Below are positions 6,258-49,565 of a DNA stretch of 64,000 bases, piece after piece. Positions within the stretch are counted from its first letter, which is position 1; each line of letters begins with the position of its first letter. Source of the DNA: Minisyncoccota bacterium (GTDB lineage Bacteria > Patescibacteriota > Minisyncoccia > Phycocordibacterales > UBA9973). The notes beneath the pieces are model-generated. The model worked only from the letters and a program-made list of their open reading frames with translations, ran no database searches and had not been told where the DNA came from. Where the stretch lies: contig DATDWM010000018.1 of NCBI GenBank assembly GCA_036517375.1, positions 9,004 through 73,003 on the forward strand. The letters are read 5' to 3'. Position numbers and translations under genes: made by a program.

Positions 6258-7985
6258 TTGCAAAATATCAGAATGAAAGAAAGTGAAATAAGAAATTGTC
6301 AGAATTGCAAAACAGACTTCACGATAGAAACTGAAGATTTTAACTTCTACGAAAAAATAAAAGTTCCGCCCCCAACTTTTTGCCCAGAGTGTCGTTTGAT
6401 GCGACGTTTTATGCATACAAGCGAAACTGTTTTATATAAAAGGAAGTGTGATTTTTCTGGTAAAGAAATATTTAGCATGCATCCTGAGGGAGCAGAATTT
6501 CCTGTTTATGATACTGATATCTGGTATTCGGACGCCTGGGATCCTTATGCGTATGGAATGGATTACAACCCCAGTCGTCCATTCTTAGAACAATATTTTG
6601 AACTTCAAAGAAAGATACCTCGTATGTCTATCGTGAGACAAGGCATGGCTGTTAATAGTCCTTACGCACACCGAGTCACTGACCCTAAAAATGCGTATAT
6701 GGTCTTTCGTAGTTCTTATGCAGAAAATTCTTTTTATGTTTATAACGGTAAAAAACATGTCATGGATTGTTGTGACTGCTCCTGGATTTTTGAATGTGAG
6801 CTCTGTTATGAATGCGTGAATTGTGCCAATTGTTACAATGTAAAATTTGGGCAAGAAAGCAAAGATTCTCGAGACTGTTCTTTCATTTATGCATGCAGAA
6901 ACAGTTCTAATTGTGTAGGGTGTGTGAATTTAGTAAATGCGGAGTACTGTATCTGGAACAAAAAATATACAAAAGAAGAATACTTTAAAAAGATTAAGGA
7001 AATGGAATTAAACACTTTCTCCGGTATCGAAAAAATAAAAGTCGAATTTGAAAATTTCAGAAAGACATTTCCACAAAGATCAACTATGTCTATAAAATCC
7101 GATGATGTATCCGGTAACTGGTTTTTAAATAGTAAGAATGTTCACAAATCTTTTGACTGCGAGGGGGTAAAAGACGGGAAATATCTATTTATGGTGTTTG
7201 ATGCACAGGACTGCATGGACTATTTTGAATGGGGTAATAAAGCAGAGCAGATATACGAATCGCAAAATTGCGGACTTGATATTGCACGGCTTTATTTCTG
7301 TAATCAGTGTTGGGCGGGAGCACATGACCTTTATTATTGTGATCTTTGCCCTGGTGCACATGATTGTTTTGGTTGTGTTGGTCTTAAGAAAGGGGAATAT
7401 TCAATTTTAAATAAAAAATATCCAAAAAAAGAATATGAAGTTCTTAAAAAAGAAATCACAGAGCAGATGAAGAGAGTGCCCTATATAGACAAAAAAGGTT
7501 TAGAGTATCGATTTGGTGAAAATTTCCCTCCATCTTTTTCCGATCATGCTTATAATGAAACTATCGCTAATTATTATTATCCGCTTACTAAAGAGGAAAC
7601 AGAAAATACCGGGTATCGTTGGGCGGACAGAAAGAAAAGAAACTATGATGTTACACTGAAACCCGCAGACTTACCAGAAACAATAGGGGAAGTAAATGAT
7701 TTGATTTTAGGTGAAGTTATAGAATGTGCCGAAAAGGATAATCCGAATTCAGTGGGAGCGTATAGAATTGTAGAAAACGAACTATCTTTTTACCGAAGAA
7801 TGGATTTGCCTTTACCGAGAGTTTGTTTCGATATTAGACATATACGAAGAATGGATAAACGCCCGCCCTTAAAAATTATAAATCGCAACTGTTCAAAATG
7901 TAGTAAAGAGGTGGAAACAGTCTATACAGAGCACTATGCACCGATTTTATACTGTGAAAAGTGTTATCAGCAGGAGGTATATTAG
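6258..7985 (+). CDS. Cys-rich hypothetical protein with N- and C-terminal zinc-ribbon-like motifs and internal Cys repeats
   Basis: 575 aa. N-terminus CQNCKTDFTIETEDFNFYEKIKVPPPTFCPECRLMRRF. A related motif sits near the C-terminus (FYRRMDLPLPRVCFDIRHIRRMDKRPPL), followed by CSKCSK...YCEKCY. Two internal CxxC-rich blocks each end in NKKY[TP]KEEY. No recognisable enzymatic motif. Confidence 0.6.
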   Translation: MQNIRMKESEIRNCQNCKTDFTIETEDFNFYEKIKVPPPTFCPECRLMRRFMHTSETVLYKRKCDFSGKEIFSMHPEGAEFPVYDTDIWYSDAWDPYAYGMDYNPSRPFLEQYFELQRKIPRMSIVRQGMAVNSPYAHRVTDPKNAYMVFRSSYAENSFYVYNGKKHVMDCCDCSWIFECELCYECVNCANCYNVKFGQESKDSRDCSFIYACRNSSNCVGCVNLVNAEYCIWNKKYTKEEYFKKIKEMELNTFSGIEKIKVEFENFRKTFPQRSTMSIKSDDVSGNWFLNSKNVHKSFDCEGVKDGKYLFMVFDAQDCMDYFEWGNKAEQIYESQNCGLDIARLYFCNQCWAGAHDLYYCDLCPGAHDCFGCVGLKKGEYSILNKKYPKKEYEVLKKEITEQMKRVPYIDKKGLEYRFGENFPPSFSDHAYNETIANYYYPLTKEETENTGYRWADRKKRNYDVTLKPADLPETIGEVNDLILGEVIECAEKDNPNSVGAYRIVENELSFYRRMDLPLPRVCFDIRHIRRMDKRPPLKIINRNCSKCSKEVETVYTEHYAPILYCEKCYQQEVY

Positions 7986-8750: not shown

Positions 8751-11153
8751 ATGGAGGGAAATAAATTTTTGCAAAAAAATATGAAAGTAGCTGTATTGTG
8801 CGGTGGGCCTTCCTTAGAACGCGGAATATCTCTCAACTCTGCTCGCAGTATCCTTGACCATCTAGGTAGCCAAGGAGTTGAGATAATACCAATTTACTTC
8901 AACGAACAAAAAAGTCCGTATAAAATTTCTACGGCACAATTATATTCGAACACCCCGAGCGATTTTGACTTTAAACTCGACAATAAATCTAAACTCTCAC
9001 CCACCTCACTAATTCGTATTTTAAAAAGTGTAGACATTGTTTTTCCTTGTATACATGGAAGCTTCGGAGAGGATGGGGAGCTACAGAGCTTCCTCGAAAA
9101 GCACAAGATACCATTTATCGGTTCATCTTCAAGCTCATGTAAGAAGGCCTTCGATAAATACAAAGCGAATGAGTACATTCGCTCGCTTGGATTCTATGCG
9201 CCGAACTCTATTGTCATAAAGATTACCGATTCTTCAAGAGACATTAAGGAAAAAGTAAATAAATTTTGGAAAGATGAGGATATTACTCGCGCGATAGTTA
9301 AGCCCGCGAGCGGCGGATCGAGCATTGGGGTTTTCTCGGTAGAGAATATCTCTGACGCTCTCCTAAGCATAGAAAGCCTCTTTAGTAAACGCATGGATAC
9401 TCGGGTAGTAGTGGAGCCCTTTGCTAGGGGGATAGAATTCACAGTAATTGTTTTAGAAAACAGGCTGAATATGCCGGTGGCTATATTGCCGACAGAAATA
9501 GAGGTAGAATATACGGAAAATCAATTTTTTGACTTCCGTAAAAAATATTTACCTACTCGACATGTTACGTATCATTGCCCACCTAGATTTTCCAACGAAA
9601 TTATTGAAAAAATTCAAATTGAAGCGGAACAGTTGTTTTCTATTTTTGGAATGCAGGATTTTGCTCGCTTCGATGGATTTCTGATGCCGGACGGAAATAT
9701 TTGGTTTTCGGACTTCAATCCTATTTCAGGCATGGAGCAAAACAGCTTTCTTTTCCAGCAGGCTTCACGCATTGGCTTTTCACATCAGGACCTCTTCCGA
9801 TATATTGTAAATAACGCGTGTATGCGTAGAGGAATCTCGGGGGCGGTAGAAAATATTTTTATTGCCGAGGATCGCAAGCCACTAGCGGTTCTTTTCGGCG
9901 GGGAAACGGCGGAAAAGCAGGTTTCATTAATGAGTGGTACGAATGTCTGGCTTAAGTTGCGAGGCTCAGAGATTTATAAACCATTTCCGTACCTACTTGG
10001 CCCAAAGGGCGAGGTCTGGGAGCTACCGTATTCGTATATTCTAAATCATACGGTAGAGGAGATAATTGAAAATGCAAAGAGCGCGGAGCAGGATGTGGAC
10101 AGGCTTTCTTTCCTCATTGAGAAGGTCAAGATTAAATTGTCTTTAAATAGCGGGGACACTACCGAGAACTTCTTTATTCCTAGAAAGTATTCACTCGCTC
10201 AAATACTCCAGAAATTTCCTTTTGTTTTTATAGCTCTCCATGGTGGATTTGGCGAGGATGGCACACTGCAGAAGATTCTAAAAGGTGAAAAAATAAAATT
10301 TAACGGATCCGGAAGCGTTGTTTCAAAATTATGCATGGATAAATGGGAAACGAACGAAACAATAAAAAAAGCACAGATAAAAGGAGTAACCGTGGCTGAG
10401 CACGCCCTGTTCCAAATAAGGGATGTCCCTGAACACACCGACAACGACTTGAAAGAAGTGCATTGGAGGATGCTAGTAGAGCGGCTAAGCACAAAGACCA
10501 TCATCGGAAAGCCAAGAGGGGACGGATGTTCTGCTGGTGTGGTGATGCTTTCTAATGAAAAAGATTTGTCTACTTATATATCATTGATAAAAAATAAAGT
10601 AAAGATTGCCAAGCCACATACTTTCACTAATCAAACACATAGCATCGATATGCCAGAGGGTGATGTGCAGGATATTATTTTCGAATCATTTATCGAGACG
10701 GATAGACTGAAAGTGCACAAAGGGGAAATTACTCATATTCCTAAAAGTGGGTATGTGGAAATGACAGTGGGAGTTTTCGAAGAAAGGGGGAAGGTTAGAT
10801 CATTTTCCCCATCTATTACCATAGCCGAGGATACAATACTTTCTGTAGAAGAAAAATTCCAAGGTGGAACCGGGGTAAACATTACTCCTCCACCAAAAGA
10901 AATTATTTCTACTAAGAACTTGAATAAAGTAAAGAGTTTAGTTGAACAAGTTGCCAAAAAAATAGGGATTCGAGGATATTCAAGGATAGACATCTTCGTT
11001 CACATTAAAACTGGTACTATTATTGTGATTGAAATCAACACTTTACCCGGACTAACCCCATCTACGGTAATATACCATCAAGCTTTGGCGGAAAAGAAGC
11101 CGATGTTCCCGAAGGAATTCCTAGAGCTTTTGATCAAAAATAAGGGGTATTAA
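8751..11153 (+). CDS. ddl: Tandem fusion of two complete D-alanine--D-alanine ligase-like ATP-grasp modules (Ddl-Ddl)
   Basis: First half: MKVAVLCGGPSLERGISLNS...FPCIHGSFGEDGELQ...IVKPASGGSSIGV...ARFDGFL...SDFNPISG. Second half repeats the pattern: PLAVLFGGETAEKQVSLMS...FIALHGGFGEDGTLQ...IIGKPRGDGCSAGV...SRIDIFV...IEINTLPG. 800 aa. The true start may be the MKVAVL ATG at 8781. Confidence 0.8.
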   Translation: MEGNKFLQKNMKVAVLCGGPSLERGISLNSARSILDHLGSQGVEIIPIYFNEQKSPYKISTAQLYSNTPSDFDFKLDNKSKLSPTSLIRILKSVDIVFPCIHGSFGEDGELQSFLEKHKIPFIGSSSSSCKKAFDKYKANEYIRSLGFYAPNSIVIKITDSSRDIKEKVNKFWKDEDITRAIVKPASGGSSIGVFSVENISDALLSIESLFSKRMDTRVVVEPFARGIEFTVIVLENRLNMPVAILPTEIEVEYTENQFFDFRKKYLPTRHVTYHCPPRFSNEIIEKIQIEAEQLFSIFGMQDFARFDGFLMPDGNIWFSDFNPISGMEQNSFLFQQASRIGFSHQDLFRYIVNNACMRRGISGAVENIFIAEDRKPLAVLFGGETAEKQVSLMSGTNVWLKLRGSEIYKPFPYLLGPKGEVWELPYSYILNHTVEEIIENAKSAEQDVDRLSFLIEKVKIKLSLNSGDTTENFFIPRKYSLAQILQKFPFVFIALHGGFGEDGTLQKILKGEKIKFNGSGSVVSKLCMDKWETNETIKKAQIKGVTVAEHALFQIRDVPEHTDNDLKEVHWRMLVERLSTKTIIGKPRGDGCSAGVVMLSNEKDLSTYISLIKNKVKIAKPHTFTNQTHSIDMPEGDVQDIIFESFIETDRLKVHKGEITHIPKSGYVEMTVGVFEERGKVRSFSPSITIAEDTILSVEEKFQGGTGVNITPPPKEIISTKNLNKVKSLVEQVAKKIGIRGYSRIDIFVHIKTGTIIVIEINTLPGLTPSTVIYHQALAEKKPMFPKEFLELLIKNKGY

Positions 11154-11212: not shown

Positions 11213-11371
11213 ATGTCCCAAGATAGACTAATAAAACTCGCCTGCGGAACCTGTAAGCGTATCAACTACTGGTCCAGCAAGAACAAGAAACTCGTCACTA
11301 AAAAGATTGAGCTCCAAAAGTTTTGCAAGTGGTGCAAGAAGAAAACTAAGCACAAAGAATCTAAGAAATAA
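11213..11371 (+). CDS. rpmG: 50S ribosomal protein L33 (52 aa, absent from the ORF track because it is under 60 aa)
   Basis: My translation: MSQDRLIKLACGTCKRINYWSSKNKKLVTKKIELQKFCKWCKKKTKHKESKK. It matches Cys4-type bacterial L33 (compare B. subtilis [49 protein letters not shown]). Confidence 0.85.
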   Translation: MSQDRLIKLACGTCKRINYWSSKNKKLVTKKIELQKFCKWCKKKTKHKESKK

Positions 11372-11552
11372 GCTTTATTTTACTTTAGTTTTCCTTTGGT
11401 TTTCTTAATTCCTTCTGCTATACTTTAGCCACAACAAAGAGTTTTGTTGTATGTTCTTCTTAAGTAGGAAGCACGATATTTTTTATTTTGTGCTTCCAAA
11501 ACCCGTTTGTGCTTAAGCGGGCTTTTGCTCGTGTAAGGCGTAAACGGGATAA

Positions 11553-11623
11553 GGGCGATTAGTATAATGGTAGTACAAAGGCCTCCAAATCCTTTGGCGG
11601 GGGTTCGATTCCCTCATCGCCCG
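11553..11623 (+). tRNA. tRNA-Trp (anticodon CCA)
   Basis: Manual fold. Acceptor GGGCGAT/ATCGCCC. D-loop has GG. Anticodon loop CUCCAAA is identical to E. coli tRNA-Trp. T-arm GGGGGTTCGATTCCCTC. Discriminator G, no encoded CCA. The 31-39 position is a C-U mismatch. Confidence 0.8.
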
Positions 11624-11653
11624 CAGATTTTTTAGAGTTTCTGATTATATTTC

Positions 11654-15624: not shown

Positions 15625-16677
15625 ATGCCAAGTGAAGCACCAAAATTTTTCGTAGATAAAGTTAGAGAGCAAAAGGAGGAAGATCCTAAACCGTATGATG
15701 CTGTTATTTCATTAGAACCTGGTAAAGAAAAAGTGGGCTTCGTTAGAGATAATTTCGTTTGTGAGGTTGTGGACGAAAAGGGAAATGAGTCTACAATTAG
15801 AATTCCAACCTCTATTACATATTCTAGAAAAGATGCGAATGAACCATGGAGTAAGAAGTTGTATGGCTACAGAGAGGGCGTAGGAGAGGCTTTAGATTCA
15901 GAAGAAATGAGTTACTACGTAGTCTACGATCCATCATCTGAATTAAGCTTCCTAGCTATGCCGCTTGAGGATAATACTAGAATTGCACGTAATAAGGACA
16001 ATTTAGACTTGTTTTTAAAAAACGGTCGAGAAGAAGACACTGAATCATTAAAAAAATTGATGGGCGAATTTAAAGACGTGGATTTCGGATTATTCGGTTC
16101 ACGTAGTGTTCTAGGCTCACCAGCAGCAAAAACAGTAGACATAGATTTGATTATTTATGGGCCTGAAGATTTACAAAGAGTAGTTTCTGCGATAGAAGGA
16201 AATAGTGATTTGCGCAAAAAAATAGGTCTAACAGATAGGTCTTCTGAAACAATAGAAAAATATGTAGCTCACTACATGCGAAAATTTAACATTACAGAAA
16301 GTGAGGCCAGGATTATAACCTTAAGAAGAAGGAGGTATATATTAAAACCTAACATTAAGTTATCGTTCAACTGCGCCCTGCCTGATAAAGAGAGAAAAAC
16401 TCCTATTGTTATAGGTTCTAAGAAAATTCATGATATTACAATTGAAGCCACAGCTTTGGATACCTCAATGTCTTCAGCTTTGCCTAGATTATTTTCAGTC
16501 GAAACTGAAGGGGAAAAAATAGATGTTGTGACTGGTAATTGGTCATTAAAAGATTTCATTAGACCAGGAGATAAAGTTAAAGTTATAGGCGCGTTAAGAG
16601 AGTCTAATGGTGTTACTTTTATCTCTTTAGAGAAACCAGGAGATATCATTCTCCCAACTAATAATGATAAGAAATAA
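15625..16677 (+). CDS. Pol-beta-superfamily nucleotidyltransferase with an uncharacterised N-terminal domain of about 140 aa
   Basis: Minimal NTase signature GLFGSRSVLGSPAAKTVDIDLIIYG (GS...DxD) around residue 150-175. I recognise no motif in the flanking domains. 350 aa. Confidence 0.55.
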   Translation: MPSEAPKFFVDKVREQKEEDPKPYDAVISLEPGKEKVGFVRDNFVCEVVDEKGNESTIRIPTSITYSRKDANEPWSKKLYGYREGVGEALDSEEMSYYVVYDPSSELSFLAMPLEDNTRIARNKDNLDLFLKNGREEDTESLKKLMGEFKDVDFGLFGSRSVLGSPAAKTVDIDLIIYGPEDLQRVVSAIEGNSDLRKKIGLTDRSSETIEKYVAHYMRKFNITESEARIITLRRRRYILKPNIKLSFNCALPDKERKTPIVIGSKKIHDITIEATALDTSMSSALPRLFSVETEGEKIDVVTGNWSLKDFIRPGDKVKVIGALRESNGVTFISLEKPGDIILPTNNDKK

Positions 16678-17578
16678 TGACAATACAGAGAAGATCTTAG
16701 TCAATAGTAAATTCGTTAAGAATTTAAATGTTACTGGCGATAAACTTCACTGTGAGGCTGGCCTGTATGTTTCACTTGGCCGTAAGTACGTGATCAAAAA
16801 AATAGGAAGACAATATAAATTAAATTCCACAGAACTTATACTCCTTGAAAAATCTGTATCGAGATACTACGATCATTTAAAAAAAATCATACCTAATAAT
16901 GTTCCTAAAATTTTTCTTACTAAGATAGATAAGGAGAAAAATTGCATTTTATTAGTTACGGAATATTTACCTTTAGGTAAAGTTACAGCTATTAAAGATA
17001 TTTCAATGAAAATTAAATATTTTAATGAAATTATTAAGTTAATACTCAAGATTTCAAACAAGAAAGGCAATACCTCTGGAAATAAACTCAAATGTTCTAT
17101 TGATCCCAATCCAGATAATTTCTTTTTGGATTCAGAAAATAAGATAGTATATAACGATTTCACACCACCGTTGTACAGAGAAAATGGTAAGTGGGTAGAA
17201 TTTAGAAGAAGAGACGAGGCTCATGCAAAAAAATCTGAAAAGGAAACTCGTTATTTTTCCGAAATAAATTTATTGCTGGCATTTATTAATAAAACAAGAT
17301 TGTATCTAACTTTAGATGAATACCTTAAGTTTTCCAGGTCACACTTTTCAACTAATAATAAGGTAAAGCAGTTTGTAAAAATCTTTGATGAAGTTAGATC
17401 TGAGAGGGTAGCAAGTTTCGATAAACTTGAGAAGCATGTCGTGCGAAGAGATTTATTAAGATTTGCCTTGTCCTTTCGCAAGGGTTTAACAAGTACTCAG
17501 GTCGGAGAACTTTACAAGAAATCTAAAAAACCTAACGGTGTTGTATTTCTTGAGAAAAAATATATAAGTTTAATTTAA
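16664..17578 (+). CDS. Hypothetical protein, possibly protein-kinase-like fold (APH / Kdo-kinase-like)
   Basis: CSIDPNPDNFFLD...KIVYNDFTPP resembles the kinase catalytic loop (D-x4-N) plus a DF-type metal-binding motif. The assignment is weak. The start overlaps the previous gene by 14 nt. Confidence 0.4.
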   Translation: MIRNNDNTEKILVNSKFVKNLNVTGDKLHCEAGLYVSLGRKYVIKKIGRQYKLNSTELILLEKSVSRYYDHLKKIIPNNVPKIFLTKIDKEKNCILLVTEYLPLGKVTAIKDISMKIKYFNEIIKLILKISNKKGNTSGNKLKCSIDPNPDNFFLDSENKIVYNDFTPPLYRENGKWVEFRRRDEAHAKKSEKETRYFSEINLLLAFINKTRLYLTLDEYLKFSRSHFSTNNKVKQFVKIFDEVRSERVASFDKLEKHVVRRDLLRFALSFRKGLTSTQVGELYKKSKKPNGVVFLEKKYISLI

Positions 17579-29831: not shown

Positions 29832-30674
29832 ATGTTAAAGAGAAACGCATTAAACTCTCCACGTCTTTTGGAATTAAAACGAAAGAGGCAAAATGCCTTC
29901 CGTAATAAAATATTATTTTTTGTTTTCCTGCTCATCTTGCTTATCATAGGGAGCGTGTATCTTTCTAGAATATCCGGACTCAACATTAAGGGGGTAGAAA
30001 TCTCAGGTAATAATGTAGTTGATACTGAAAATATTAAAGAAGTGGTGAACGAAAAGTTAACTGGGAAATATTTGTGGTTTTTCCCCAGGACTAATGTTTT
30101 GTTCTATCCTAGTGATAAAATCAAAACTGATTTATACGAAAAATTCCAAGGATTACAAGATATTAATCTCCGCATAAATAGTAAAGGGGTTCTGGAAATT
30201 TCAGTTTCAGAAAGAAGCGCCATCTATACTTGGTGTGGTAAAGTACCACTGGATGCGGGTGGGGTTACCCAGAAATGTAATTTTATGGATAAAGATGGTT
30301 ACGTCTTTGACGAAGCGCCGTATTTTTCTGGAGAAGTTTATTTCAAGTTTTATGGCGGAGCCTTAGAGAAACCAAGTCCTATTTTCAGCCAGCTTGTTTT
30401 ATTTAAAGAAAATCTAGAAAAAAACGGACTAAAAATTAGCTCTATTTATGTGGCTGATGATGGCGACGGCAAGGTGTTTCTTTCTTCCGCGGGTAAATCC
30501 GCGACAGAAGGACAAATACTTTTTAAAACAGATGCGGACTTAGAAATAGTAGTAGTGAATTTAGTCACAGCGCTAGCAGCCGAGCCACTTAAAAGTGAGT
30601 TTAAAAACAAGTATTCCTTACTTTCGTATATTGATCTAAGGTTTGGGAATAAAGTTTACTATAAGTTCAAATGA
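29832..30674 (+). CDS. ftsQ: Cell division protein FtsQ/DivIB-like (single N-terminal TM + POTRA)
   Basis: A basic N-terminus, a TM helix ILFFVFLLILLIIGSVYL, then a POTRA-like ISGLNIKGVEISGNNVV...VLEISVSERSAIYTW. 280 aa. Confidence 0.55.
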   Translation: MLKRNALNSPRLLELKRKRQNAFRNKILFFVFLLILLIIGSVYLSRISGLNIKGVEISGNNVVDTENIKEVVNEKLTGKYLWFFPRTNVLFYPSDKIKTDLYEKFQGLQDINLRINSKGVLEISVSERSAIYTWCGKVPLDAGGVTQKCNFMDKDGYVFDEAPYFSGEVYFKFYGGALEKPSPIFSQLVLFKENLEKNGLKISSIYVADDGDGKVFLSSAGKSATEGQILFKTDADLEIVVVNLVTALAAEPLKSEFKNKYSLLSYIDLRFGNKVYYKFK

Positions 30675-35531: not shown

Positions 35532-36200
35532 ATGGACATAGAGATAAAGACAACTACAGAACCTAAAGTTGCTGCAGAATTTCTGGCTAGCCGGATTTTA
35601 GAAAAGTTAGGACTCAATAAAAAAGTTCTGTGGTTTGTACCTGGTGGTTCTTCAATAAAGGTTGCCGCAGAAGCGGCAAAAATAATTTCAAAAAATCCGC
35701 ATCAGAACCTCGCTGTGATGCTTACAGACGAGCGCTATGGACCCGTCGGATTTCCGGATTCGAATTGGCAGCAACTCCTCGACACCGGGTTTTCTTTAGT
35801 GGAAGCGAAGCTAATGCCCGTTTTAAACGGTAGTGCCAGAGAAGAGACAACAGAGAATTTCAACATAAATCTAAAGTTAGAATTAGAGAGAGCGGATTAT
35901 AAAATTGGTTTATTCGGAATAGGGACCGATAGTCATACAGCTGGGATTTTACCGGAAAGCCCCGCGATTGAGAGTAAAGAATTTGCCTTTAGGTACAATA
36001 CGGAGAAATTTGAACGCATTACCATAACACCCAAAACCATAGTAGAATTAGACGAAGCTGTTGTTTTCGTGCAAGGGGAGGGGAAATGGGGAGTGCTCGA
36101 GAATTTTAAAAATAAAAATGTAGATCTCCGGACAGCGCCAGTGCAGATTTTAAAAGTAGTGCCCAAAGTTACAATTTTTAGTGATTATCCAAATAAGTAA
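35532..36200 (+). CDS. pgl: 6-phosphogluconolactonase-like (NagB/RpiA/CoA-transferase-like fold)
   Basis: The LTDERYG motif region and position immediately upstream of gnd and zwf support Pgl over glucosamine-6-P deaminase. 222 aa. Confidence 0.65.
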   Translation: MDIEIKTTTEPKVAAEFLASRILEKLGLNKKVLWFVPGGSSIKVAAEAAKIISKNPHQNLAVMLTDERYGPVGFPDSNWQQLLDTGFSLVEAKLMPVLNGSAREETTENFNINLKLELERADYKIGLFGIGTDSHTAGILPESPAIESKEFAFRYNTEKFERITITPKTIVELDEAVVFVQGEGKWGVLENFKNKNVDLRTAPVQILKVVPKVTIFSDYPNK

Positions 36201-36207
36201 AAATAGT

Positions 36208-37074
36208 ATGAAAAAAATTGCAGTTGCAGGATTGGGTAAAATGGGAAGTCAGATAGCAAAAAAACTTGAAGAGGGTGGTTTTATTGTAATTCCGCATCAT
36301 ACAGAGGATGACAAGAGTAAGACATTAAATGCTTTCAGTGAAGATCAGGTAGTGATTTGGTTAATGATTCCTTCAGGGGTAGTAGACGCGCAACTAGACC
36401 TATGGCTTAAATTAATTCCGAAGGGAAGTATTTTAATAGACGGCGGAAATTCTGATTTCAGGCTCACAAAAGTGCGAGCGGAAAAAGTGGCGGGCTTAGG
36501 TTCTGTCCTGCTTGACATCGGTACCAGCGGTGGAGTCTGGGGGTATCAAAACGGCTTTGCTATGATGTGTGGTGGAGAAAAAAATTCATTTGAAATAATT
36601 GAACCAGTTTTAAAAACCTTGGCATTGCCCCTAGGCGCGTATCATCATTTCGGAGAGAGTGGTTCAGGGCACTTTGTAAAAATGACCCACAACGCCATTG
36701 AGTACGGCATGATGGAGTCCTTAGCGGAAGGCTATCGACTACTTAAGGAAGGACCGTATAAAAATATTGACCTCGTCGCGGCAGGTGAAGTATGGCAACG
36801 TCACAGTGTTATCACTTCTTGGCTGAATGAACTCACTCGGGATGCTTTGAAAGAAAATCCGGAGCTCGGAGGCATTGAGGGTGTAGTAGCAGAATCCGGT
36901 GAGGCACGCTGGGCACTTGAGGTAGCTCAAAATTTAAAAATAGAAACGCCTTCAATTCAGGCTGCATTTGATGTACGTCTCCAGTCTCAGAAAGGAAAAA
37001 TTAATTTTACCACCAAGTTGCTCGCAGCTATGCGGAATGCCTTCGGCGGGCACAATATTCATGGAAAACAATAG
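36208..37074 (+). CDS. gnd: 6-phosphogluconate dehydrogenase (decarboxylating), short about 300-aa form
   Basis: Rossmann IAVAGLGKMGSQIAKKL and HFVKMTHNAIEYGMMESLAEGY. ATG 36208 is preferred over the ORF-track GTG at 36181, which overlaps the pgl stop. Confidence 0.75.
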   Translation: MKKIAVAGLGKMGSQIAKKLEEGGFIVIPHHTEDDKSKTLNAFSEDQVVIWLMIPSGVVDAQLDLWLKLIPKGSILIDGGNSDFRLTKVRAEKVAGLGSVLLDIGTSGGVWGYQNGFAMMCGGEKNSFEIIEPVLKTLALPLGAYHHFGESGSGHFVKMTHNAIEYGMMESLAEGYRLLKEGPYKNIDLVAAGEVWQRHSVITSWLNELTRDALKENPELGGIEGVVAESGEARWALEVAQNLKIETPSIQAAFDVRLQSQKGKINFTTKLLAAMRNAFGGHNIHGKQ

Positions 37075-38089
37075 TACAGCTTACATTATTTTCGGGGCTT
37101 CTGGAGACTTAGCTAAGAGGTATTTATTGCCTGCGCTCGCGAATATGAATTACGAGGGTATCATTGTTCCTATTTCACGCAAGGATTATGGGAATTTAAA
37201 AAAATTAATTCCGAGCGACGGGAATAAGATATTTCACCTAGCAATTCCTCCCAAGGGTGTGACAGAAGCTGTTCGATTAATCAGCGAGAACTTTGGTAAA
37301 GCAAATAATATTAAAATAATGCTAGAAAAACCTTTCGGTCAGGATTTAAAGTCCGCGCAAGATCTAGTAGAGCACGTAGACCAATATTTTAATGAAGATC
37401 AGATTTATCGCATTGATCACTACTTGGCTAAAAAATCTGTACAGGAAATTACTCGAACGGATTGGAATAAAAGTAATGTCCAAAGTATTGAAATTATAGC
37501 TAGTGAAAAAATAGGTATTGAAGGCCGGGTAAATTTTTATGAGCAGACTGGGGCACTGCGGGACTTTGTACAGAGCCACCTGCTCGAGCTCGTGGCAATT
37601 ATTTTAATGAAGGAGGGGGAAGAATCAGTGGCAGAGCGACGCCATACGGCTCTTCAGAATTTAGAAGTTGTCTGTGACATAACTTTACACGAATGTGTAA
37701 AAAGAGGACAATATGAGGGATACAGAGAGGAGGTTGGTAATCCCAAAAGCCTAACAGAGACCTTTGTATCCATAAATATGATTTCCAATGACCCTCTATG
37801 GCGTGGAATACCGATAACCATGGCTACCGGAAAGGCGCTACAAGAAAAATTTACACACATAAAGATAAAATATAAAAATGGAGGCATTAAAATTTTTAAT
37901 ATCGAACATGAACCAGATGCGTATGAGCATGTAATCGAGGCAGCCCTCGAGGATAAGCACAATTTATTTATCTCGAGCGGAGAAGTATTAGAGAGCTGGA
38001 GAATTCTGGATGCTGTGCAGGAGAGCTGGAAGCATTCTAAGGATGATTTGATAATCTATAAAAAAAATAGTAGTATAAACGATATCTAA
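37061..38089 (+). CDS. zwf: Glucose-6-phosphate 1-dehydrogenase, unusually short (343 aa)
   Basis: IIFGASGDLAKRYLLPAL, EKPFGQDL and RIDHYLAKK signature motifs in canonical order. The start at ATG 37061 overlaps the gnd stop by 14 nt. The ORF-track N-terminal extension is the gnd 3' end read in another frame. Confidence 0.8.
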   Translation: MENNSTAYIIFGASGDLAKRYLLPALANMNYEGIIVPISRKDYGNLKKLIPSDGNKIFHLAIPPKGVTEAVRLISENFGKANNIKIMLEKPFGQDLKSAQDLVEHVDQYFNEDQIYRIDHYLAKKSVQEITRTDWNKSNVQSIEIIASEKIGIEGRVNFYEQTGALRDFVQSHLLELVAIILMKEGEESVAERRHTALQNLEVVCDITLHECVKRGQYEGYREEVGNPKSLTETFVSINMISNDPLWRGIPITMATGKALQEKFTHIKIKYKNGGIKIFNIEHEPDAYEHVIEAALEDKHNLFISSGEVLESWRILDAVQESWKHSKDDLIIYKKNSSINDI

Positions 38090-38091
38090 TT

Positions 38092-39585
38092 ATGACGCCC
38101 AAAAAGGTTAAAAAATTAAGTCCGAAAATGTTAGGGCAAGGTCTTACTTTTGATGACGTTCTTCTCGTGCCTGGGTATAGTGAAGTATTACCAAAGGACG
38201 TCAGTACTAAGACTCGCCTTACAAAAAATATTACTCTCCACATTCCACTCATGTCTGCCGCCATGGATACAGTTACGGAAAGCGTTATGGCCATTGCCAT
38301 GGCTCAGCAAGGTGGCATCGGCATTATTCATAAAAATTTAGGAATAACTGACCAAGCCCGCGAAGTAGAACGCGTCAAGCGCTACGAATCCGGACGCATT
38401 GTAAATCCTATTACCTTACCTTTTAATGCAACAGTTGGGGATGCTCTTCGTGTTCAAAAAACTCATAACATCGGCGGGATTCCAATAGTGGATCAAGCAG
38501 GCGTACTTTTGGGCATTGTGACCAACAGAGATCTGCGCTTTGAAAGCTTAGATAAAAGTGAGAATATTCCGATTAAAGATATTATGACCACTAAACTCAT
38601 TACCGGTAGTCCAGACACTACTCTCCTAGAAGCAAATGATTTATTTAGGAAACACAGCATTGAGAAGCTCCCACTGATAGACAAAAACAAAAAGTTGGTT
38701 GGACTCATTACTTATCGAGACATGAGGAAAAGTAAAGCTTATCCAAATGCGACTAAAGATAAAGACGGTCGGCTCGCAGTCGGAGCAGCGGTGGGTACAG
38801 GCAAGGATGCGCTTCTGTGCGTACAAACTTTAGTGGAGGCTGGAGTGGATGTGGTATGTGTTGATACCGCGCACGGGCACTCTAGGGGTGTTCTAGAAGT
38901 TGTAAAAAATATAAGGAAAGAATTTCCTAAACTTGAAATAATTGCTGGTAATGTAGCGACAGGGGAAGCGGCTCTGGCACTTATCAAAGCAGGAGCAAAT
39001 GTAATTAAAGTTGGCATTGGTCCAGGTTCTATTTGTACGACCCGCATCGTCTCCGGTGTTGGGGTACCTCAACTCTCGGCAGTGGCGGATGTGTATAAAG
39101 TTTGTGGCCCGCTCGGAGTATCTGTTATCGCAGACGGTGGAGTGAAACACAGTGGAGACATTGTGAAGGCGCTTGTTTTCGGAGCAGATGTGGTGATGGC
39201 GGGTGGAGTATTTGCCGGTACTGATGAGTCACCAGGGGACACTATCGTCGTCAATGATCAAAAATATAAAAAGTACCGAGGCATGGGTTCCTTGGGCGCA
39301 ATGCAGAGAGGCTCGAAAGATAGATACTTCCAAGACGACCAATATGATCCAATCAAACTTGTACCCGAAGGCGTCTCCGGCCACGTGGCCTATAAGGGCG
39401 CAGTGGGAGAAGTAATACATCAATACATTGGCGGATTGCGAGCTGGCATGGGTTACTTAGGTGCTAAGGAAATAAATTCCCTGCGCGGTGCTTCTTTTTA
39501 TACAATTACTTCCGCAGGACTAAATGAAAGTCACGTACACGATATTTTTATGGTCGCCCCCACTCCTAATTATAAAAAACAATGA
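38092..39585 (+). CDS. guaB: IMP dehydrogenase with CBS pair
   Basis: [22 protein letters not shown] region, catalytic-loop [19 protein letters not shown]. 497 aa. Confidence 0.9.
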
Positions 39586-40967
39586 AAATAAAAAGCATGA
39601 TCATGCCTATTATCGGACTCCAGTGGGGAGACGAGGGTAAGGGCAAGGGAGTTGCGCGCATTGCCTCAAATTTAAAAAAGGAAGATCTGATTGTAAGGTT
39701 CCAGGGTGGTAACAACGCCGGGCATACTATCTGGCATAAAAGTATTTGTTATGTTTTTCACCTTATACCTTCTGGAGTCTTCGGCCAAGCGCAAATACAT
39801 CTAGGAGCCGGGATGGTCATTGATCCATCTGCACTCCAGAAAGAAACACTGACGATCCCCCCTGGTGTATCTTTTATGAATCGCATGTCAGTCTCACCGC
39901 ACGCCATACTCACTATGCCGACACACTTGATTCTAGACTCTATCTCTGAGCGAACCCGCGGTAAGAAAAAGATCGGCTCTACCGGTAAAGGTATTTCACC
40001 CTCTTATACTGACCTCACTCTTAGGCGAGCGCTGAGGGTTGGAGATATTTTTAATAATGACTTTCAAAAAAAATACACGGAACTTCGCAACGAACACAAA
40101 AGAACACTACTCAAAGACTTTGGACACGAAGTAGGTGCAAAAGAATTAAAAGAGAAGGAAGCTAATTTTTTCAAAGGAATTAAATTTCTGAAGTCGCTTG
40201 CGGTCACAGACTCAGCAGAGATAGTCTCAAGAGCATTGTCTCGGGGCAGGAAGGTAATAGCCGAAGGCGCGCAGGGAGCACTACTTGATGTCCGCTTTGG
40301 ACACTATCCGTATGTTACTTCTTCCCACACGATTGCGAGCGGAGTGGGTACTGGGCTCGGTATTCCGCCTTCATACATTGGAGGTGCGATTGGAATTTTT
40401 AAAGCCTACACCACCAAGGTGGGTGAAGGCCCTTTCCCGACAGAACTCGGAGGTCTCACGTCTGCAGTCTGGTGTCGCGACAAAAAGATGGTGGATGAAA
40501 AAGCAAAGTTTCCACTGCCCGACCCAGACAGCAAGAGTGAATTTGAGCAAGGTGTGGCTCTCCGAAGAATGGGAAATGAAATCGGCGCAACCACAGGTAG
40601 ACTTCGCCGCACAGGCTGGGTGGATATTCCGCTTCTTCAGTACGCGATAGAAATGAACAACGTTACAGAATTAGTTTTGACCAAGCTTGATGTATTAAGT
40701 GGTTTTAAAAATATAAAAGTTTGTACTTCTTATAAAATAAATAACAAAGAGACAGAAAAAATTCCTTTTGATCTCTCTCGGGTAAATGTAAAACCAGTCT
40801 ATAAAACATTCCCCATCTGGGAGGGAAAACTCTCGGATTATGGAAATAAATTGCCTAAGGAAGCTCTTACGTATGTTAAATTTTTGGAAAAAACTCTAGG
40901 CGCAAAAATAATCTACGTCGGCACGGGGCCAGAGGAACACCATGTAGTAGAGCGGAATTGGAAATAA
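39582..40967 (+). CDS. purA: Adenylosuccinate synthetase
   Basis: QWGDEGKGK P-loop, GNNAGHT, and TTGRLRRTGW near the C-terminus. 461 aa. Confidence 0.9.
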   Translation: MKIKSMIMPIIGLQWGDEGKGKGVARIASNLKKEDLIVRFQGGNNAGHTIWHKSICYVFHLIPSGVFGQAQIHLGAGMVIDPSALQKETLTIPPGVSFMNRMSVSPHAILTMPTHLILDSISERTRGKKKIGSTGKGISPSYTDLTLRRALRVGDIFNNDFQKKYTELRNEHKRTLLKDFGHEVGAKELKEKEANFFKGIKFLKSLAVTDSAEIVSRALSRGRKVIAEGAQGALLDVRFGHYPYVTSSHTIASGVGTGLGIPPSYIGGAIGIFKAYTTKVGEGPFPTELGGLTSAVWCRDKKMVDEKAKFPLPDPDSKSEFEQGVALRRMGNEIGATTGRLRRTGWVDIPLLQYAIEMNNVTELVLTKLDVLSGFKNIKVCTSYKINNKETEKIPFDLSRVNVKPVYKTFPIWEGKLSDYGNKLPKEALTYVKFLEKTLGAKIIYVGTGPEEHHVVERNWK

Positions 40968-41013
40968 AAACCATGAATTTGTCTTTAGTATATATATACG
41001 ATAATATAACTGT

Positions 41014-43956
41014 ATGATTTCCCGGATATATGTAGCGCCTAGAAGTTCTGATATTCGAGGGGGGCAAATTGACTCTTATCTTCTGGAACACGAGCTTACT
41101 CCGGAAATGCTCATTTTAGTTGGCCGCGCGCTTGCAAATCCTATCACGGAAAACTTCTCAATAAACAAACTACCTAAAGTAAAACCATTTAGTTATGCTA
41201 TAGAAATTGGTTTCAAGCCCGGGGTCACCGACAATGTCGGACATACAACTCGGGAGACCATTATTGATTTACTACACCTAGAGAACGGGGAGAATTTGAG
41301 TGTTTATTCTTCCAAAATTTTTTTAATTTCTAAATCTATCAAAATGGAAGCAGTAAAGAAACTCGCACTGTCTCTCTATAATCCATTGATAGAAACAGCA
41401 TATATCACCACCCTTGAAGCCATAAGAAAGGAGAACAACTTTCCTTTAAAAATTCCCCAAGTTATTCTAGAAAAAAGGACTTCTATTGTTAATGTTCCTT
41501 TAGCTGTCTCTGACGAAGAGCTTATCAAGATTGGCAGAGAAGGAATAGTAGACGACAACGGAAGCCGCCGAGGACCCTTAGCGCTTGACCTTGACTCAAT
41601 GAACGCCATTGCCGAATATTTCGTAAAATTACGTAGAGATCCGACTGATATAGAACTCGAGTCCTTAGCCCAGACCTGGAGCGAGCATTGTAAACATACA
41701 ATTTTTGCCAATCCGATAGACAACATTAAGGATGGTTTATACAAGACGTATATTAAGGGCGCCACAAATTTAATCAGGAAGAAACTAGGTAGGAAAGATT
41801 TCTGCGTATCTGTTTTTAAAGACAACTCCGGGGCTATCGGTTTCGATGAAGAATTTTTAATCACCCATAAAGTAGAAACTCACAACAGTCCTTCGGCGCT
41901 TGACCCCTACGGCGGAGCCATTACTGGTATTGTTGGGGTAAATCGTGACTGTCTCGGATTTGGCTTAGGTGCTAAGCCCGTAGCCAACACGTATGGATTT
42001 TGTTTTGGCGAACCAGAAGACACTAGGCCACTATTTCGGGATAAAAATATGACTCAAAAGATGTTCCCGCCGAAACGTATTATGGAAGGCGTGATCAAAG
42101 GCATCAATACGGGCGGGAATTGTTCCGGCATTCCTACAATTTCCGGATTTGTGCGTTATGACGATAGATATCGGGGCAAACCGCTAGTTTTCGCAGGGAC
42201 GGTGGGACTCATTCCAAGAACAATAAATAATTTACCTTCTCACGAAAAGAGCGCCAAAGCTGGAGACTATATTGTGGTGGTAGGTGGCAGGGTCGGCGCT
42301 GATGGTATCCATGGCGCTACTTTTTCATCCGTTGTCATGGACTCATCTTCTCCGGCAACAGCGGTGCAAATTGGCGACCCGATAACTCAAAAGAAATTTA
42401 GTGATGCGATAGTCAAGGAAGCGCGCGGAATGAATTTGTACAACAGCATCACGGATAACGGCGCCGGAGGAATTTCCTGCTCGGTGGCAGAAATGGCAAA
42501 GGAGTGCGACGGAGCTACAGTTAATTTGGAAAAAGTGCCACTAAAATATCCAGGTCTGCGACCTTGGGAAATTTGGATTTCCGAATCCCAAGAACGTATG
42601 ACTCTAGCCGTGCCACCGAAAAAGTGGCCAGTATTTAGCGCCCTAATGCAGAGCCGGGGAGTAGAAGCCACTGTGATAGGTGAGTTCAATAATTCCGGAA
42701 AATGTGTGGTGAAATGGGAAAGCAAAGTTATTATGGATTTAGAACTTGAATTTTTACACAACGGCTTACCTCAAAAACAGCTAACCACAACCCCGCATCA
42801 AAATAAATTCTCTGAGCCTAAACTCCCGTCTGGATTCTCTCGTACCAAAGTCTTTGAAGAATTACTCGGAAATAATAATATCTCAAGCTTCTCTTTTATT
42901 TCAGAGCAATACGACCACGAGGTTCAGGCATCTTCGGTTTTAAAACCACTCTCGGGTAGAGGAATGATAAACACTGAGGCACAAGTTTTCAAGCCAGTAC
43001 TTTCTTCCAACAAAGGAGTAGTGCTCGCTTCTGGCCTGTGTCCTTCCTACTCTGACATTAGTACGTATAGTATGGCAGCAGCGGCCCTCGATACTGCTGT
43101 GCGTAATACTGTTGCCGCCGGGGGCACACTCGGGGAACTCGCTATTTTAGACAATTTCTGTTGGTGCTCATCCTATGATAAAACTAGGCTTGCGGAGCTT
43201 GTGGACGCACTCAAGGCCTGCTACGACGGGGCTCTGGCCTATAGCACGCCTTTCATCTCCGGCAAGGATAGTATGTTTAATGACTTCCAAGGATATGATG
43301 AAAAAGGGAAACCTGTAAAGATTTCTATCCCACCTACACTACTTATCTCTGCGATAAGCGTAATGCCGGATATTTATAAAACAGTTTCGCCGGAATTTAA
43401 AAACGCTGGAGATGTAATTTATTTATTAGGAGAGACGAATGATGAGTTAGGAGCTTCTGAGTATTACAAGCTACTTGCTAAGCATGAGAAAAATAATGCT
43501 ATTGGAAATAAAGTACCGCAGGTAAATTTCAAGAAAAATCTGAAAACTTATTTAGCCTTAGAGGAAGTTATCGAAAAAGAACTCCTGGTTTCCTCTCTGT
43601 CAGTTTCTTCCGGAGGGTTAAGTGTTGCTTTAGCTAAATCATCTGTAGGTGGAATGCTTGGATGTAATATTAGTCTCGAGAATTTATCAGGAACCCTCTA
43701 CGGAGGAGACTCCTCCGTAGACTCCGTAGTAGATGCCAAGCTCTTTTCTGAAAGCCAAGGCCGGATCCTGGTTTCCGTCTCACCTAAGAATATTTTAAGG
43801 TTCAAGAAAACAATGAGAGGAATTCCATACACCGAGCTTGGGAAAGTTTCTAAAGATGGAAAAGTTGTAGTAATGGACGGCAAAAACAAGGTAGTCGAAA
43901 GTGCAGTCAAAAAATTACGAGATATTTATCATGCAATGTCTCAAAGAATGAAATGA
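41014..43956 (+). CDS. purL: Phosphoribosylformylglycinamidine synthase subunit PurL with an N-terminal PurS-like extension (PurS-PurL fusion)
   Basis: 980 aa. Residues about 50-130 (FSYAIEIGFKPGVTDNVGHTTRETIIDLL...) resemble PurS. They are followed by the PurL AIR-synthase-related domains (SEHCKHTIF, DNGAGG, etc.). Confidence 0.85.
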   Translation: MISRIYVAPRSSDIRGGQIDSYLLEHELTPEMLILVGRALANPITENFSINKLPKVKPFSYAIEIGFKPGVTDNVGHTTRETIIDLLHLENGENLSVYSSKIFLISKSIKMEAVKKLALSLYNPLIETAYITTLEAIRKENNFPLKIPQVILEKRTSIVNVPLAVSDEELIKIGREGIVDDNGSRRGPLALDLDSMNAIAEYFVKLRRDPTDIELESLAQTWSEHCKHTIFANPIDNIKDGLYKTYIKGATNLIRKKLGRKDFCVSVFKDNSGAIGFDEEFLITHKVETHNSPSALDPYGGAITGIVGVNRDCLGFGLGAKPVANTYGFCFGEPEDTRPLFRDKNMTQKMFPPKRIMEGVIKGINTGGNCSGIPTISGFVRYDDRYRGKPLVFAGTVGLIPRTINNLPSHEKSAKAGDYIVVVGGRVGADGIHGATFSSVVMDSSSPATAVQIGDPITQKKFSDAIVKEARGMNLYNSITDNGAGGISCSVAEMAKECDGATVNLEKVPLKYPGLRPWEIWISESQERMTLAVPPKKWPVFSALMQSRGVEATVIGEFNNSGKCVVKWESKVIMDLELEFLHNGLPQKQLTTTPHQNKFSEPKLPSGFSRTKVFEELLGNNNISSFSFISEQYDHEVQASSVLKPLSGRGMINTEAQVFKPVLSSNKGVVLASGLCPSYSDISTYSMAAAALDTAVRNTVAAGGTLGELAILDNFCWCSSYDKTRLAELVDALKACYDGALAYSTPFISGKDSMFNDFQGYDEKGKPVKISIPPTLLISAISVMPDIYKTVSPEFKNAGDVIYLLGETNDELGASEYYKLLAKHEKNNAIGNKVPQVNFKKNLKTYLALEEVIEKELLVSSLSVSSGGLSVALAKSSVGGMLGCNISLENLSGTLYGGDSSVDSVVDAKLFSESQGRILVSVSPKNILRFKKTMRGIPYTELGKVSKDGKVVVMDGKNKVVESAVKKLRDIYHAMSQRMK

Positions 43957-44720
43957 GTAAGAAAAATAAAAAACCAAAAGTAATCATTTTGTCTGGGTAC
44001 GGACTCAATTGTGAAGAGGAAACGAAGTTTGCCTTTGAACAAGCAGGGGGTGTGGCTGACATTGTACACATTAATGACCTAATCGCAGGACCTAAAATAC
44101 TCGCGGAGTATAGCATCATGGCTTTTCCGGGAGGATTTTCCTACGGAGATGACACTGGTAGTGGAAAAGCTTATGCTAATAAATTTAAAAATCATCTAGC
44201 TCAAGAATTAGAAGAATTCCTTTCCCGCGACACCCTCGTTATTGGTATTTGTAATGGTTTTCAAATTATTACAAATTTAGGAATTTTACCTGGAGCTTTA
44301 ACCTACAACAGTGGTGGAAAATATTTAGATAGGTGGGTGGACCTCGAAGTTACTGGCAGGAGTCCCTGGCTTACAGGTATAAAAAAGATCTCTGTGCCAA
44401 TAGCGCACGGGGAAGGAAGATACATGCTAAGTGAAAAGGAATACAAAGCTCTGAGTAGAAAAAAGCAGATAGTGCTGAAGTATACAAAACGCACAATTTG
44501 TGAATTTCAAAACTTAGAAGCCAACCCAAATGGTTCTACACATGACATCGCGGGCGTATGTGCGTATAATGGGAGAGTGCTCGGGCTCATGCCACACCCA
44601 GAGAGAGCGATGTTCGCGCATCAGAGTCCAATGTGGCAGAAAAATAAGAAGCGGACGGAAAAGTGGGGAGACGGATTAATTATTTTTAAAAACGCGATTA
44701 AATATTTTAAAACCCGGTAG
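43953..44720 (+). CDS. purQ: Phosphoribosylformylglycinamidine synthase glutaminase subunit PurQ
   Basis: Class I GATase: GICNGFQ catalytic Cys, and His/Glu near the C-terminus (MPHPER). Overlaps the purL stop by 4 nt. Confidence 0.85.
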   Translation: MSKKNKKPKVIILSGYGLNCEEETKFAFEQAGGVADIVHINDLIAGPKILAEYSIMAFPGGFSYGDDTGSGKAYANKFKNHLAQELEEFLSRDTLVIGICNGFQIITNLGILPGALTYNSGGKYLDRWVDLEVTGRSPWLTGIKKISVPIAHGEGRYMLSEKEYKALSRKKQIVLKYTKRTICEFQNLEANPNGSTHDIAGVCAYNGRVLGLMPHPERAMFAHQSPMWQKNKKRTEKWGDGLIIFKNAIKYFKTR

Positions 44721-44746
44721 GTAATTCTACTGAGTAAATAATAAAT

Positions 44747-47970: not shown

Positions 47971-48009
47971 ATACTTTCCTTTATTTTTCAAAAATGATAA
48001 TATAATTTC

Positions 48010-48528: not shown

Positions 48529-48530
48529 TC

Positions 48531-49562: not shown

Positions 49563-49565
49563 TAT

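Follow-up and report, generated by a model that had tools for sequence, protein, structure and literature searches.

A Patescibacteria member of the two-module D-Ala-D-Ala ligase family known from plants

Single-module D-Ala-D-Ala ligases (Ddl) are homodimers with subunits of ~300-380 residues. The DDL of plants has been described as two DDL enzymes fused together, an arrangement that occurs throughout plants (PMC9954125). In moss, DDL is reported to have a genetic role in the supply of D-Ala-D-Ala for plastid peptidoglycan (PMC9434261, PMC9954125); only the Ala-Ala pentapeptide precursor is reported there, and vancomycin gives macrochloroplasts. The bacteria previously named as closest to plant DDL were Chlamydiae/CFB (PMC3493653) and the FCB group (PMC9434261). 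Here we analyzed a tandem Ddl-Ddl gene encoded in 64,000 nucleotides of a Minisyncoccota bacterium (assembly GCA_036517375.1, contig DATDWM010000018.1, positions 9,004 to 73,003; hereafter the window). Judged by its sequence, the gene is a Patescibacteria member of the two-module DDL known from plants. The fusion is not new and within this window the gene is an ordinary one, the standard Ddl of its lineage. [quoted passage not shown] What we did not find in the literature examined is the fixed active-site asymmetry between the modules, the breadth of the bacterial family and the grouping of plant DDL with the Patescibacteria type. Literature searches, in which the coverage of plant DDL papers was incomplete, returned no description of a bacterial tandem Ddl. 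The two-module DDL, treated by plant biologists as peculiar to plants, is a widespread bacterial family.

The two-module protein and its relatives

The first-pass annotation of this DNA described two complete Ddl modules, joined covalently in tandem and diverged from each other, with SDFNP in the first half where the second has IEINT (Asp for Glu at a ligand) and several insertions in the second half. This description was borne out. The reading frame of 800 codons is uninterrupted, and the Pfam domains Dala_Dala_lig_N and Dala_Dala_lig_C were each found twice, all above the gathering scores, at residues 12-353 and ~378-780 (the second pair located as 3-405 of a 425-residue C-half query). The N and C halves are 24% identical (71.6 bits) and have 26.5% (105 bits) and 25.7% (61 bits) identity to E. 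coli DdlB, respectively; the halves are thus as far from each other as from DdlB. The two motifs are at residues 320-324 and 760-764, the exchange of Glu270 for Asp is confined to the first half, and three insertions relative to DdlB were located in the second. Positions of single residues follow E. coli DdlB, the sequence of which was checked to be identical to PDB 1IOV/2DLN, unless query residues are given. The whole protein scored 342.3 bits with the NCBIfam Ddl model TIGR01205 (cutoff 245.65), and its sequence matches in the PDB were exclusively chains of the Ddl, VanA and VanG type. It is identical to NCBI VJC14_02320, a "hypothetical protein" of a Candidatus Paceibacterota metagenome-assembled genome (MAG). 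The gene start is ambiguous: besides the ATG at 8751 (Table 1), the ATG at 8781 (Met11, MKVAVLCGG) is a possible true start.

An AlphaFold2 model of the full chain, made from a 65-sequence alignment, had a mean predicted local distance difference test (pLDDT) of 86.5 and a predicted template modeling score (pTM) of 0.86. A pTM of this size for two modules of ~400 residues would imply that they hold a confidently defined placement relative to each other. Low confidence was limited to residues 1-8 and the omega-loops at ~255-275 and 695-706, as expected of mobile lids. Foldseek against the PDB returned only single-module chains of Ddl, VanA, VanG and LmDdl2, each over half of the model, with TM-scores of at most 0.38 when normalized to the query and 0.78-0.89 when normalized to the target. 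Since all these matches are single-module, it seems that no tandem Ddl structure has been solved.

The same layout proved to be common. More than 115 clusters share 60-81% identity and the length of ~800 residues, and the C half, when searched against 1.84 billion cluster representatives, matched 285 at E<=1e-30, each representing a 50%-identity cluster; nearly all are 750-900 residues long and match at ~residues 360-800. A survey of related genomes, proposed in the first-pass annotation, located the tandem in 40 GTDB species-representative genomes (Nomurabacteria, Paceibacterota, Kaiserbacteria and other Patescibacteria) and beyond: in the cultured Acidobacteriota Sulfidibacter corallicola and Acanthopleuribacter pedis, both with complete genomes, in a complete Spirochaetota genome, in MAGs of Anaerolineaceae (Chloroflexota), Planctomycetota and Steroidobacteraceae, and on plant nuclear chromosomes. 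One marine family member is surrounded by eukaryotic genes, and long relatives with SAP domains are green algal proteins (Myrmecia, Tetraselmis). In the representatives inspected with one hidden Markov model (HMM) per half, the order was fixed with the N-type module first and the C-type module second, each module scoring 300-600 bits with its own HMM and 30-60 bits with the other. A free-standing C-type module was also considered. Most matches of ~280-510 residues proved to be fragments or alternative calls of genes from short contigs, and neither the C-half search nor its follow-up gave a convincing stand-alone C-type protein.

The likeness to plant DDL extends over the entire protein. Query residues 11-795 are collinear with residues 81-948 of Coffea DDL (XP_027176337) at 39% identity over 873 columns (595 bits, E=0), with 43% between the N halves and 39% between the C halves. 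The query is therefore far closer to Coffea DDL than to single-module DdlB, with which the N half gave 105 bits and the C half 61 bits. Half-specific residues (S150, Y216, D270 and F282 in the N module; C150, L210, F216 and T281 in the C module) were found identical in the query, Coffea, Oryza, Lupinus, Calypogeia and Myrmecia.

We used DdlB as the outgroup in a neighbor-joining tree of 111 modules. All N modules fell into a single clade (99% bootstrap), as did all C modules (100%), and the internal topologies of the two clades mirrored each other. This indicates a single ancient duplication and fusion behind the family. Plants and algae (P0192, P0418-P0436, P0214, P0233 and P0235, compared with P0001-P0120) grouped with Patescibacteria-type proteins, at 90% support among the N modules and 71% among the C modules. 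A second clade comprised Planctomycetota, Spirochaetota, Acidobacteriota, Chloroflexota and one gammaproteobacterial MAG (90 and 73%). The tree leaves the branching order within the clade of plants and Patescibacteria-type proteins unresolved, and many representatives there carry no taxon label. In pairwise comparison Coffea DDL was as near to Patescibacteria proteins (38-41% identity, 580-611 bits) as to that of a prasinophyte-like alga (37%, 440 bits), and much more distant from those of other bacterial groups (23-31%, 105-304 bits). The named bacteria most similar to the plant proteins are those of the Patescibacteria type, and the donor so far proposed for this horizontally acquired plant gene would need revision.

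Active sites of the two modules and proposed function

Conservation was assessed in three samples: 114 close relatives, the representatives of 50%-identity clusters with 106 N and 145 C modules, and named members spanning five bacterial phyla, land plants and algae. In all three, E15, H63, K97, K144, S151, E187, K215, R255, D257 and N272 were kept in both modules of essentially every member. E180 was retained in 85 of 106 N modules and 134 of 145 C modules, and position 270 is acidic in both modules. In the query the equivalents of K97, K144, E180, E187, K215, R255, D257, E270 and N272 are all present in both modules, the sole change being E270 to Asp in the N module.

The N module is otherwise canonical and keeps the E15-S150-Y216 triad and S281, with Phe for L282. 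Its Asp at position 270 is shared by 99 of 106 N modules, and Glu was found in some Spirochaetota and Steroidobacteraceae members. The C module presents E388-C593-F703 and T772 instead of the canonical specificity triad and Ser281. These exchanges are nearly invariant in the family (S150 to Cys and S281 to Thr in 140/145 each, Y216 to Phe in 143/145, Y210 to Leu in 145/145); E270 is retained and L282 is replaced by Val, Ile or Cys. An independent profile alignment to PDB sequences agreed, placing 'ddGCsaGv' opposite 'EGSSVGM' and 'eekFqGGtG' opposite 'EHKYQAGA' of P. aeruginosa DdlA. In the C-module omega-loop, EEKFQGGTG(V)NITP, every position save V709 is invariant in the close family (E700, E701, K702, F703, Q704, G705, G706, T707, G708, N710, I711, T712 and P713). 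The mean pairwise identity was 0.66 for C modules and 0.75 for N modules. By these measures the C module is under strong constraint.

The first-pass annotation had suggested that one half has altered specificity or is regulatory. The specificity residues are indeed changed, but in the second half (S150C, Y210L, Y216F, S281T) and not in the first, which had been singled out for E270D; the main asymmetry is the non-canonical substrate pocket of the second half (C593, L697, F703, T772) rather than the exchange of Glu for Asp in the first. A regulatory half, or one devoid of catalytic residues, does not fit with both halves keeping these residues in essentially every member and an acidic residue at 270. 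The idea of a fused homodimer left free to drift agrees poorly with 24% identity, a fixed order and one ancient fusion spread over bacterial phyla and green plants.

Gene fusions and neighborhoods bear on the pathway. One relative (P0145) is a Ddl-Ddl protein fused to the middle and C-terminal domains of a Mur ligase, and another (P0190, 1638 residues) carries Ddl-Ddl, Mur ligase and alanine racemase in one chain. In Sulfidibacter corallicola, a cultured acidobacterium of 11.8 Mb (OZ219275.1, L044 7430-12505), a gene for an 835-residue fusion of Mur ligase and alanine racemase is directly upstream of tandem ddl, and an alanine racemase gene is upstream of it in a distant Patescibacteria contig. 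From the pathway, the Mur ligase in these fusions would be MurF. By this association with alanine racemase and Mur ligase, and by moss genetics, the family is assigned to the D-Ala branch of peptidoglycan synthesis. Other domain combinations were also observed: P0190 potentially holds three consecutive pathway steps in a single chain, P0241 is a tandem Ddl with a PASTA domain, and the tandem-family members P0058 and P0062 have a class I/II aminotransferase domain.

We propose that the tandem protein supplies the D-Ala-D-Ala dipeptide, which MurF would add to the peptidoglycan precursor. The two ATP-grasp modules would pack together in one chain, replacing the homodimer of ordinary Ddl, and from their conservation both should bind ATP and Mg and be catalytically competent. 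D-Ala-D-Ala is the most likely product of the N-type module, whose Glu-Ser-Tyr triad is canonical. The C-type module keeps the ligand of the D-Ala1 ammonium (Glu), ligands of the carboxylate and transition state (Arg255, Thr281), the phosphate lysine and the Mg ligands. Because the Glu, the lysine, the Mg ligands, Arg255 and the hydroxyl at 281 are retained, the C site should still join D-Ala to a small nucleophile with an alpha-carboxylate. With the triad hydroxyls of Ser and Tyr lost (Cys, Phe) and a Gly-rich lid, it may be a second D-Ala-D-X site with a more hydrophobic nucleophile pocket, and its product could be D-Ala-D-Ala, formed with other kinetics, or else a different D-Ala-D-X compound. 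The fixed asymmetry of Glu-Ser-Tyr and Glu-Cys-Phe across kingdoms points to a division of labor between the modules, which would bear on the role of DDL in angiosperms. The cultured members Sulfidibacter corallicola and Acanthopleuribacter pedis are tractable systems for the function of the second module.

Several points weigh against the cell's D-Ala-D-Ala ligase being such a heterodimer. That the modules pack like the canonical Ddl dimer is presumed. The halves alone scored 213.5 (N) and 134.2 bits (C) with TIGR01205, each under the cutoff of 245.65. No second Ddl-like open reading frame (ORF) was found within the window, and a single-module ddl may lie elsewhere in the genome. D-Ala-D-Ala is not a safe assignment for the product of the C site, the triad of which carries the Y216F-type change underlying D-Ala-D-Lac synthesis in lactobacilli. 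According to PMC9954125, neither the Arabidopsis protein (AtDDL) nor its C half has yet been demonstrated to be active.

A plain pseudo-homodimer, in which both modules make D-Ala-D-Ala only and the differences reflect adaptation to the fusion or modest kinetic tuning (Km for D-Ala, product inhibition), has a chance that we put slightly below even. It is consistent with two complete sites, with the linkage solely to alanine racemase and Mur ligase, i.e., a pure D-Ala pathway, with D-Ala-D-Ala as the product in moss and with DdlB Y216F folding into an enzyme that has been solved with phosphinate intermediates (PDB 1IOW). However, the near-invariance of C150, L210, F216 and T281 in the whole family exceeds what drift would lead one to expect, and the halves are as distant from each other as unrelated Ddl lineages (24%).

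It is unlikely, but worth weighing, that the enzyme is bifunctional, with the N module making D-Ala-D-Ala and the C module another product (D-Ala-D-lactate, D-Ala-D-Ser, D-Ala-Gly or other D-Ala-D-X) for a modified stem peptide or another D-Ala metabolite. The exchanges to Cys, Phe, Leu and Thr occur in nearly all C modules across phyla and kingdoms, which argues for selection on a distinct pocket. E. coli DdlB gains depsipeptide (D-Ala-D-Lac) activity by Y216F, and the reverse change F258Y in L. reuteri Ddl abolishes vancomycin resistance, the minimum inhibitory concentration falling from >256 to 1.5 ug/ml (PMC3378904). This precedent leaves room for a different C-site product. Dipeptides of D-Ala with other amino acids have been reported in plants, where the enzyme for them is not known (PMC7432710). 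On the other hand, natural depsipeptide ligases retain the triad Ser (F258-E17-S186, PMC3378904), unlike the Cys found here. Scores with the NCBIfam models for D-Ala-D-Lac and D-Ala-D-Ser ligases were far under the cutoffs (159 vs. 550 and 239.5 vs. 495). The only pentapeptide precursor reported in moss, where vancomycin gives macrochloroplasts, is Ala-Ala, and the DDL of land plants (liverwort, angiosperms) bears the same signatures. Neither vanH, vanX nor a D-lactate dehydrogenase gene adjoins tandem ddl here, in Sulfidibacter or in contig L045, and no vanH/ldhD or vanX/aad was found among the annotated ORFs of at least 150 residues in the window. Equally doubtful is the broader proposal that the C-type module is a distinct D-Ala-D-X synthetase with a Glu-Cys-Phe pocket from bacteria to rice, and that green plants obtained a bifunctional enzyme from a Patescibacteria-like donor. 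If true, the donor would not be the Chlamydiae/CFB or FCB group, and the retention of DDL in angiosperms without a full peptidoglycan pathway would be explained.

Still less probable is that one module is a non-catalytic scaffold or regulator and the other alone makes the dipeptide. In Arabidopsis, lines in which the first half is disrupted continue to express a C-half transcript and have no phenotype (PMC9954125), most N modules have Asp for Glu270 and the C module is without the canonical triad. However, the equivalents of K97, K144, E187, K215, R255, D257, the acidic residue at 270 and N272 are retained in both modules of essentially all members, Asp is a conservative Mg ligand and some lineages have Glu at 270. 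Loss of catalytic residues is the norm in pseudoenzymes; since neither module has lost them across the family, it is unlikely that one of the modules is dead or regulatory.

Finally, a frameshift or mis-assembly joining two adjacent ddl genes, raised in the first-pass annotation, has the unusual length and nothing further in its favor, and we give it virtually no chance because the same uninterrupted fusion recurs in hundreds of independent assemblies, i.e., in the clusters and representatives counted above, in the GTDB species genomes, in complete genomes of cultured bacteria and in plant nuclear chromosomes. In one MAG (L035, 1765-4226) an apparent frameshift breaks the orthologue into two ORFs, an error of the opposite kind; this is a sequencing error or a pseudogene.

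Gene neighborhood in the window

The window encodes MreB, MurA, PBP2, an S11 D-Ala-D-Ala carboxypeptidase, an MraY-family transferase, FtsW/RodA and MurG; neither alr nor murF was found among its annotated genes. A functional operon of ddl with its neighbors was considered and rejected. The order mreB-holB-frr-rseP-(Cys-rich)-M24-ddl is kept only in relatives of ~70% identity or more and lost in distant ones, and it therefore reflects shared ancestry rather than function; as an exception, a relative of 57% identity (L024) retains M24 adjoining ddl. The adjoining M24 peptidase resembles Xaa-Pro dipeptidase and was rejected as a VanX-type enzyme. Likewise, a supposed dcw cluster at 36-52 kb was found to consist of pentose-phosphate and purine biosynthesis genes. 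This region (35532-51886, + strand) holds 6-phosphogluconolactonase, gnd and zwf, after which comes an almost complete de novo purine pathway (guaB, purA, purL, purQ, purF, a formyltransferase, purD, purE, purM, purC and purB). Patescibacteria are usually described as lacking nucleotide biosynthesis.

The Cys-rich ORF (575 residues, 6258-7985, + strand) has many CxxC pairs and no Pfam or NCBIfam match. In relatives this gene separates rseP from M24 or else holB from frr, and many relatives lack it; the two positions and the absences suggest that it is mobile or recently inserted. Three further ORFs of 280-350 residues, at 15625-17578 (+) and 29832-30674 (+), had no Pfam match at E<=1e-5. In the Spirochaetota-type contigs L041, L046 and L047, tandem ddl always divergently adjoins a flagellar export operon (fliO/P/Q/R, flhB, flhA, flhF), and the N modules encoded there keep Glu at position 270.

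Table 1. Positions of the tandem ddl gene, its modules and motifs, and the features downstream of it in the window.
Feature	Position	Strand	Basis or remark
Tandem Ddl-Ddl gene, 800 codons + stop	8751..11153	+	ATG start; ORF without internal stop
N-type Ddl module, residues ~12-356	8784..9818	+	Pfam; alignment to DdlB
N-module omega-loop QFFDFRKKYLPTRHVTYHCPP, K265-Y266	9522..9584	+	low pLDDT, expected of mobile lid
SDFNP, residues 320-324, N-module Mg-ligand motif, Asp321 for Glu270	9708..9722	+	DdlB alignment
N-module residues: triad E23-S190-Y266; K136, K184, E222, E229, K265, R306, D308, N323, G327, S332			DdlB alignment
N-module substitutions: D321 (Glu270), F333 (Leu282)			DdlB alignment
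Inter-module linker CMRRGISGAVENIFIAEDR, residues 357-375	9819..9875	+	DdlB alignment; structure model
C-type Ddl module, residues 376-800	9876..11150	+	Pfam; alignments
C-module insertion 1, residues ~432-489, inside N-terminal subdomain	10044..10217	+	two confident helices; family-conserved
C-module insertions 2 and 3, residues ~613-641 and 651-669, central ATP-grasp subdomain	10587..10757	+	relative to DdlB
C-module omega-loop ILSVEEKFQGGTGVNITPPP, K702-F703	10836..10895	+	close-family alignment; pLDDT <50 at residues 695-706
IEINT, residues 760-764, canonical Glu761/Asn763 Mg-ligand motif of C module	11028..11042	+	DdlB alignment
C-module residues kept: E388, H497, K531, K587, E645, E670, K702, R745, D747, E761, N763, G767			alignments
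C-module substitutions: C593 (Ser150), L697 (Tyr210), F703 (Tyr216), T772 (Ser281), V773 (Leu282)			alignments
Stretch with rpmG (ribosomal protein L33, 52 residues), hairpin and tRNA-Trp in apparent 626-bp gap after ddl	11213-11624	+	rpmG missed at 60-residue ORF threshold
Terminator-like hairpin downstream of ddl	11502-11521		
tRNA-Trp downstream of ddl	11553-11624	+	

Comparison with known systems

The closest described systems are the DDL proteins of plants and green algae (Arabidopsis At3g08840, Physcomitrium PpDDL, and those of Coffea, Oryza, Lupinus, Calypogeia, Myrmecia and Tetraselmis), which share module order, half-specific signatures and C-module insertions with the query. The plant proteins are longer by ~70-100 N-terminal residues (Coffea DDL aligns from residue 81 onward), presumably a transit peptide, and some algal proteins differ by SAP domains and long inserts. 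The query is bacterial, has 800 residues and is encoded amid housekeeping and cell-wall genes.

Single-module Ddl (E. coli DdlB 2DLN/1IOV, Salmonella DdlA 3I12, S. aureus Ddl 7U9K, T. thermophilus Ddl 6U1E) has the ATP-grasp fold common to each half of the query. The catalytic and specificity residues of the N module match those of these enzymes except for E270D and L282F. The query differs from them by having two fused modules, and by a C module with three insertions and with Cys and Phe for Ser150 and Tyr216.

D-Ala-D-lactate ligases (Leuconostoc LmDdl2 1EHI, Lactobacillus Ddl) and DdlB Y216F (1IOW) have Phe at the Tyr216 position, as does the C module (F703), whereas the N module has Tyr. 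These ligases are single-module, keep the triad Ser and score much better with D-Ala-D-Lac models; with NF000206 the whole query protein gave 159.4 and its C half 67.4 against the cutoff of 550. With the D-Ala-D-Ser models the protein scored 239.5 (VanG, NF000091, cutoff 495) and 186.7 (NF000207, cutoff 520).

In the MurC-Ddl of Chlamydia (NF011171) Ddl is joined to an enzyme of the same pathway, and relatives of the query are likewise fused to Mur ligase and alanine racemase. The query itself has no Mur ligase domain and scored 159.7 with NF011171, the cutoff being 1015.

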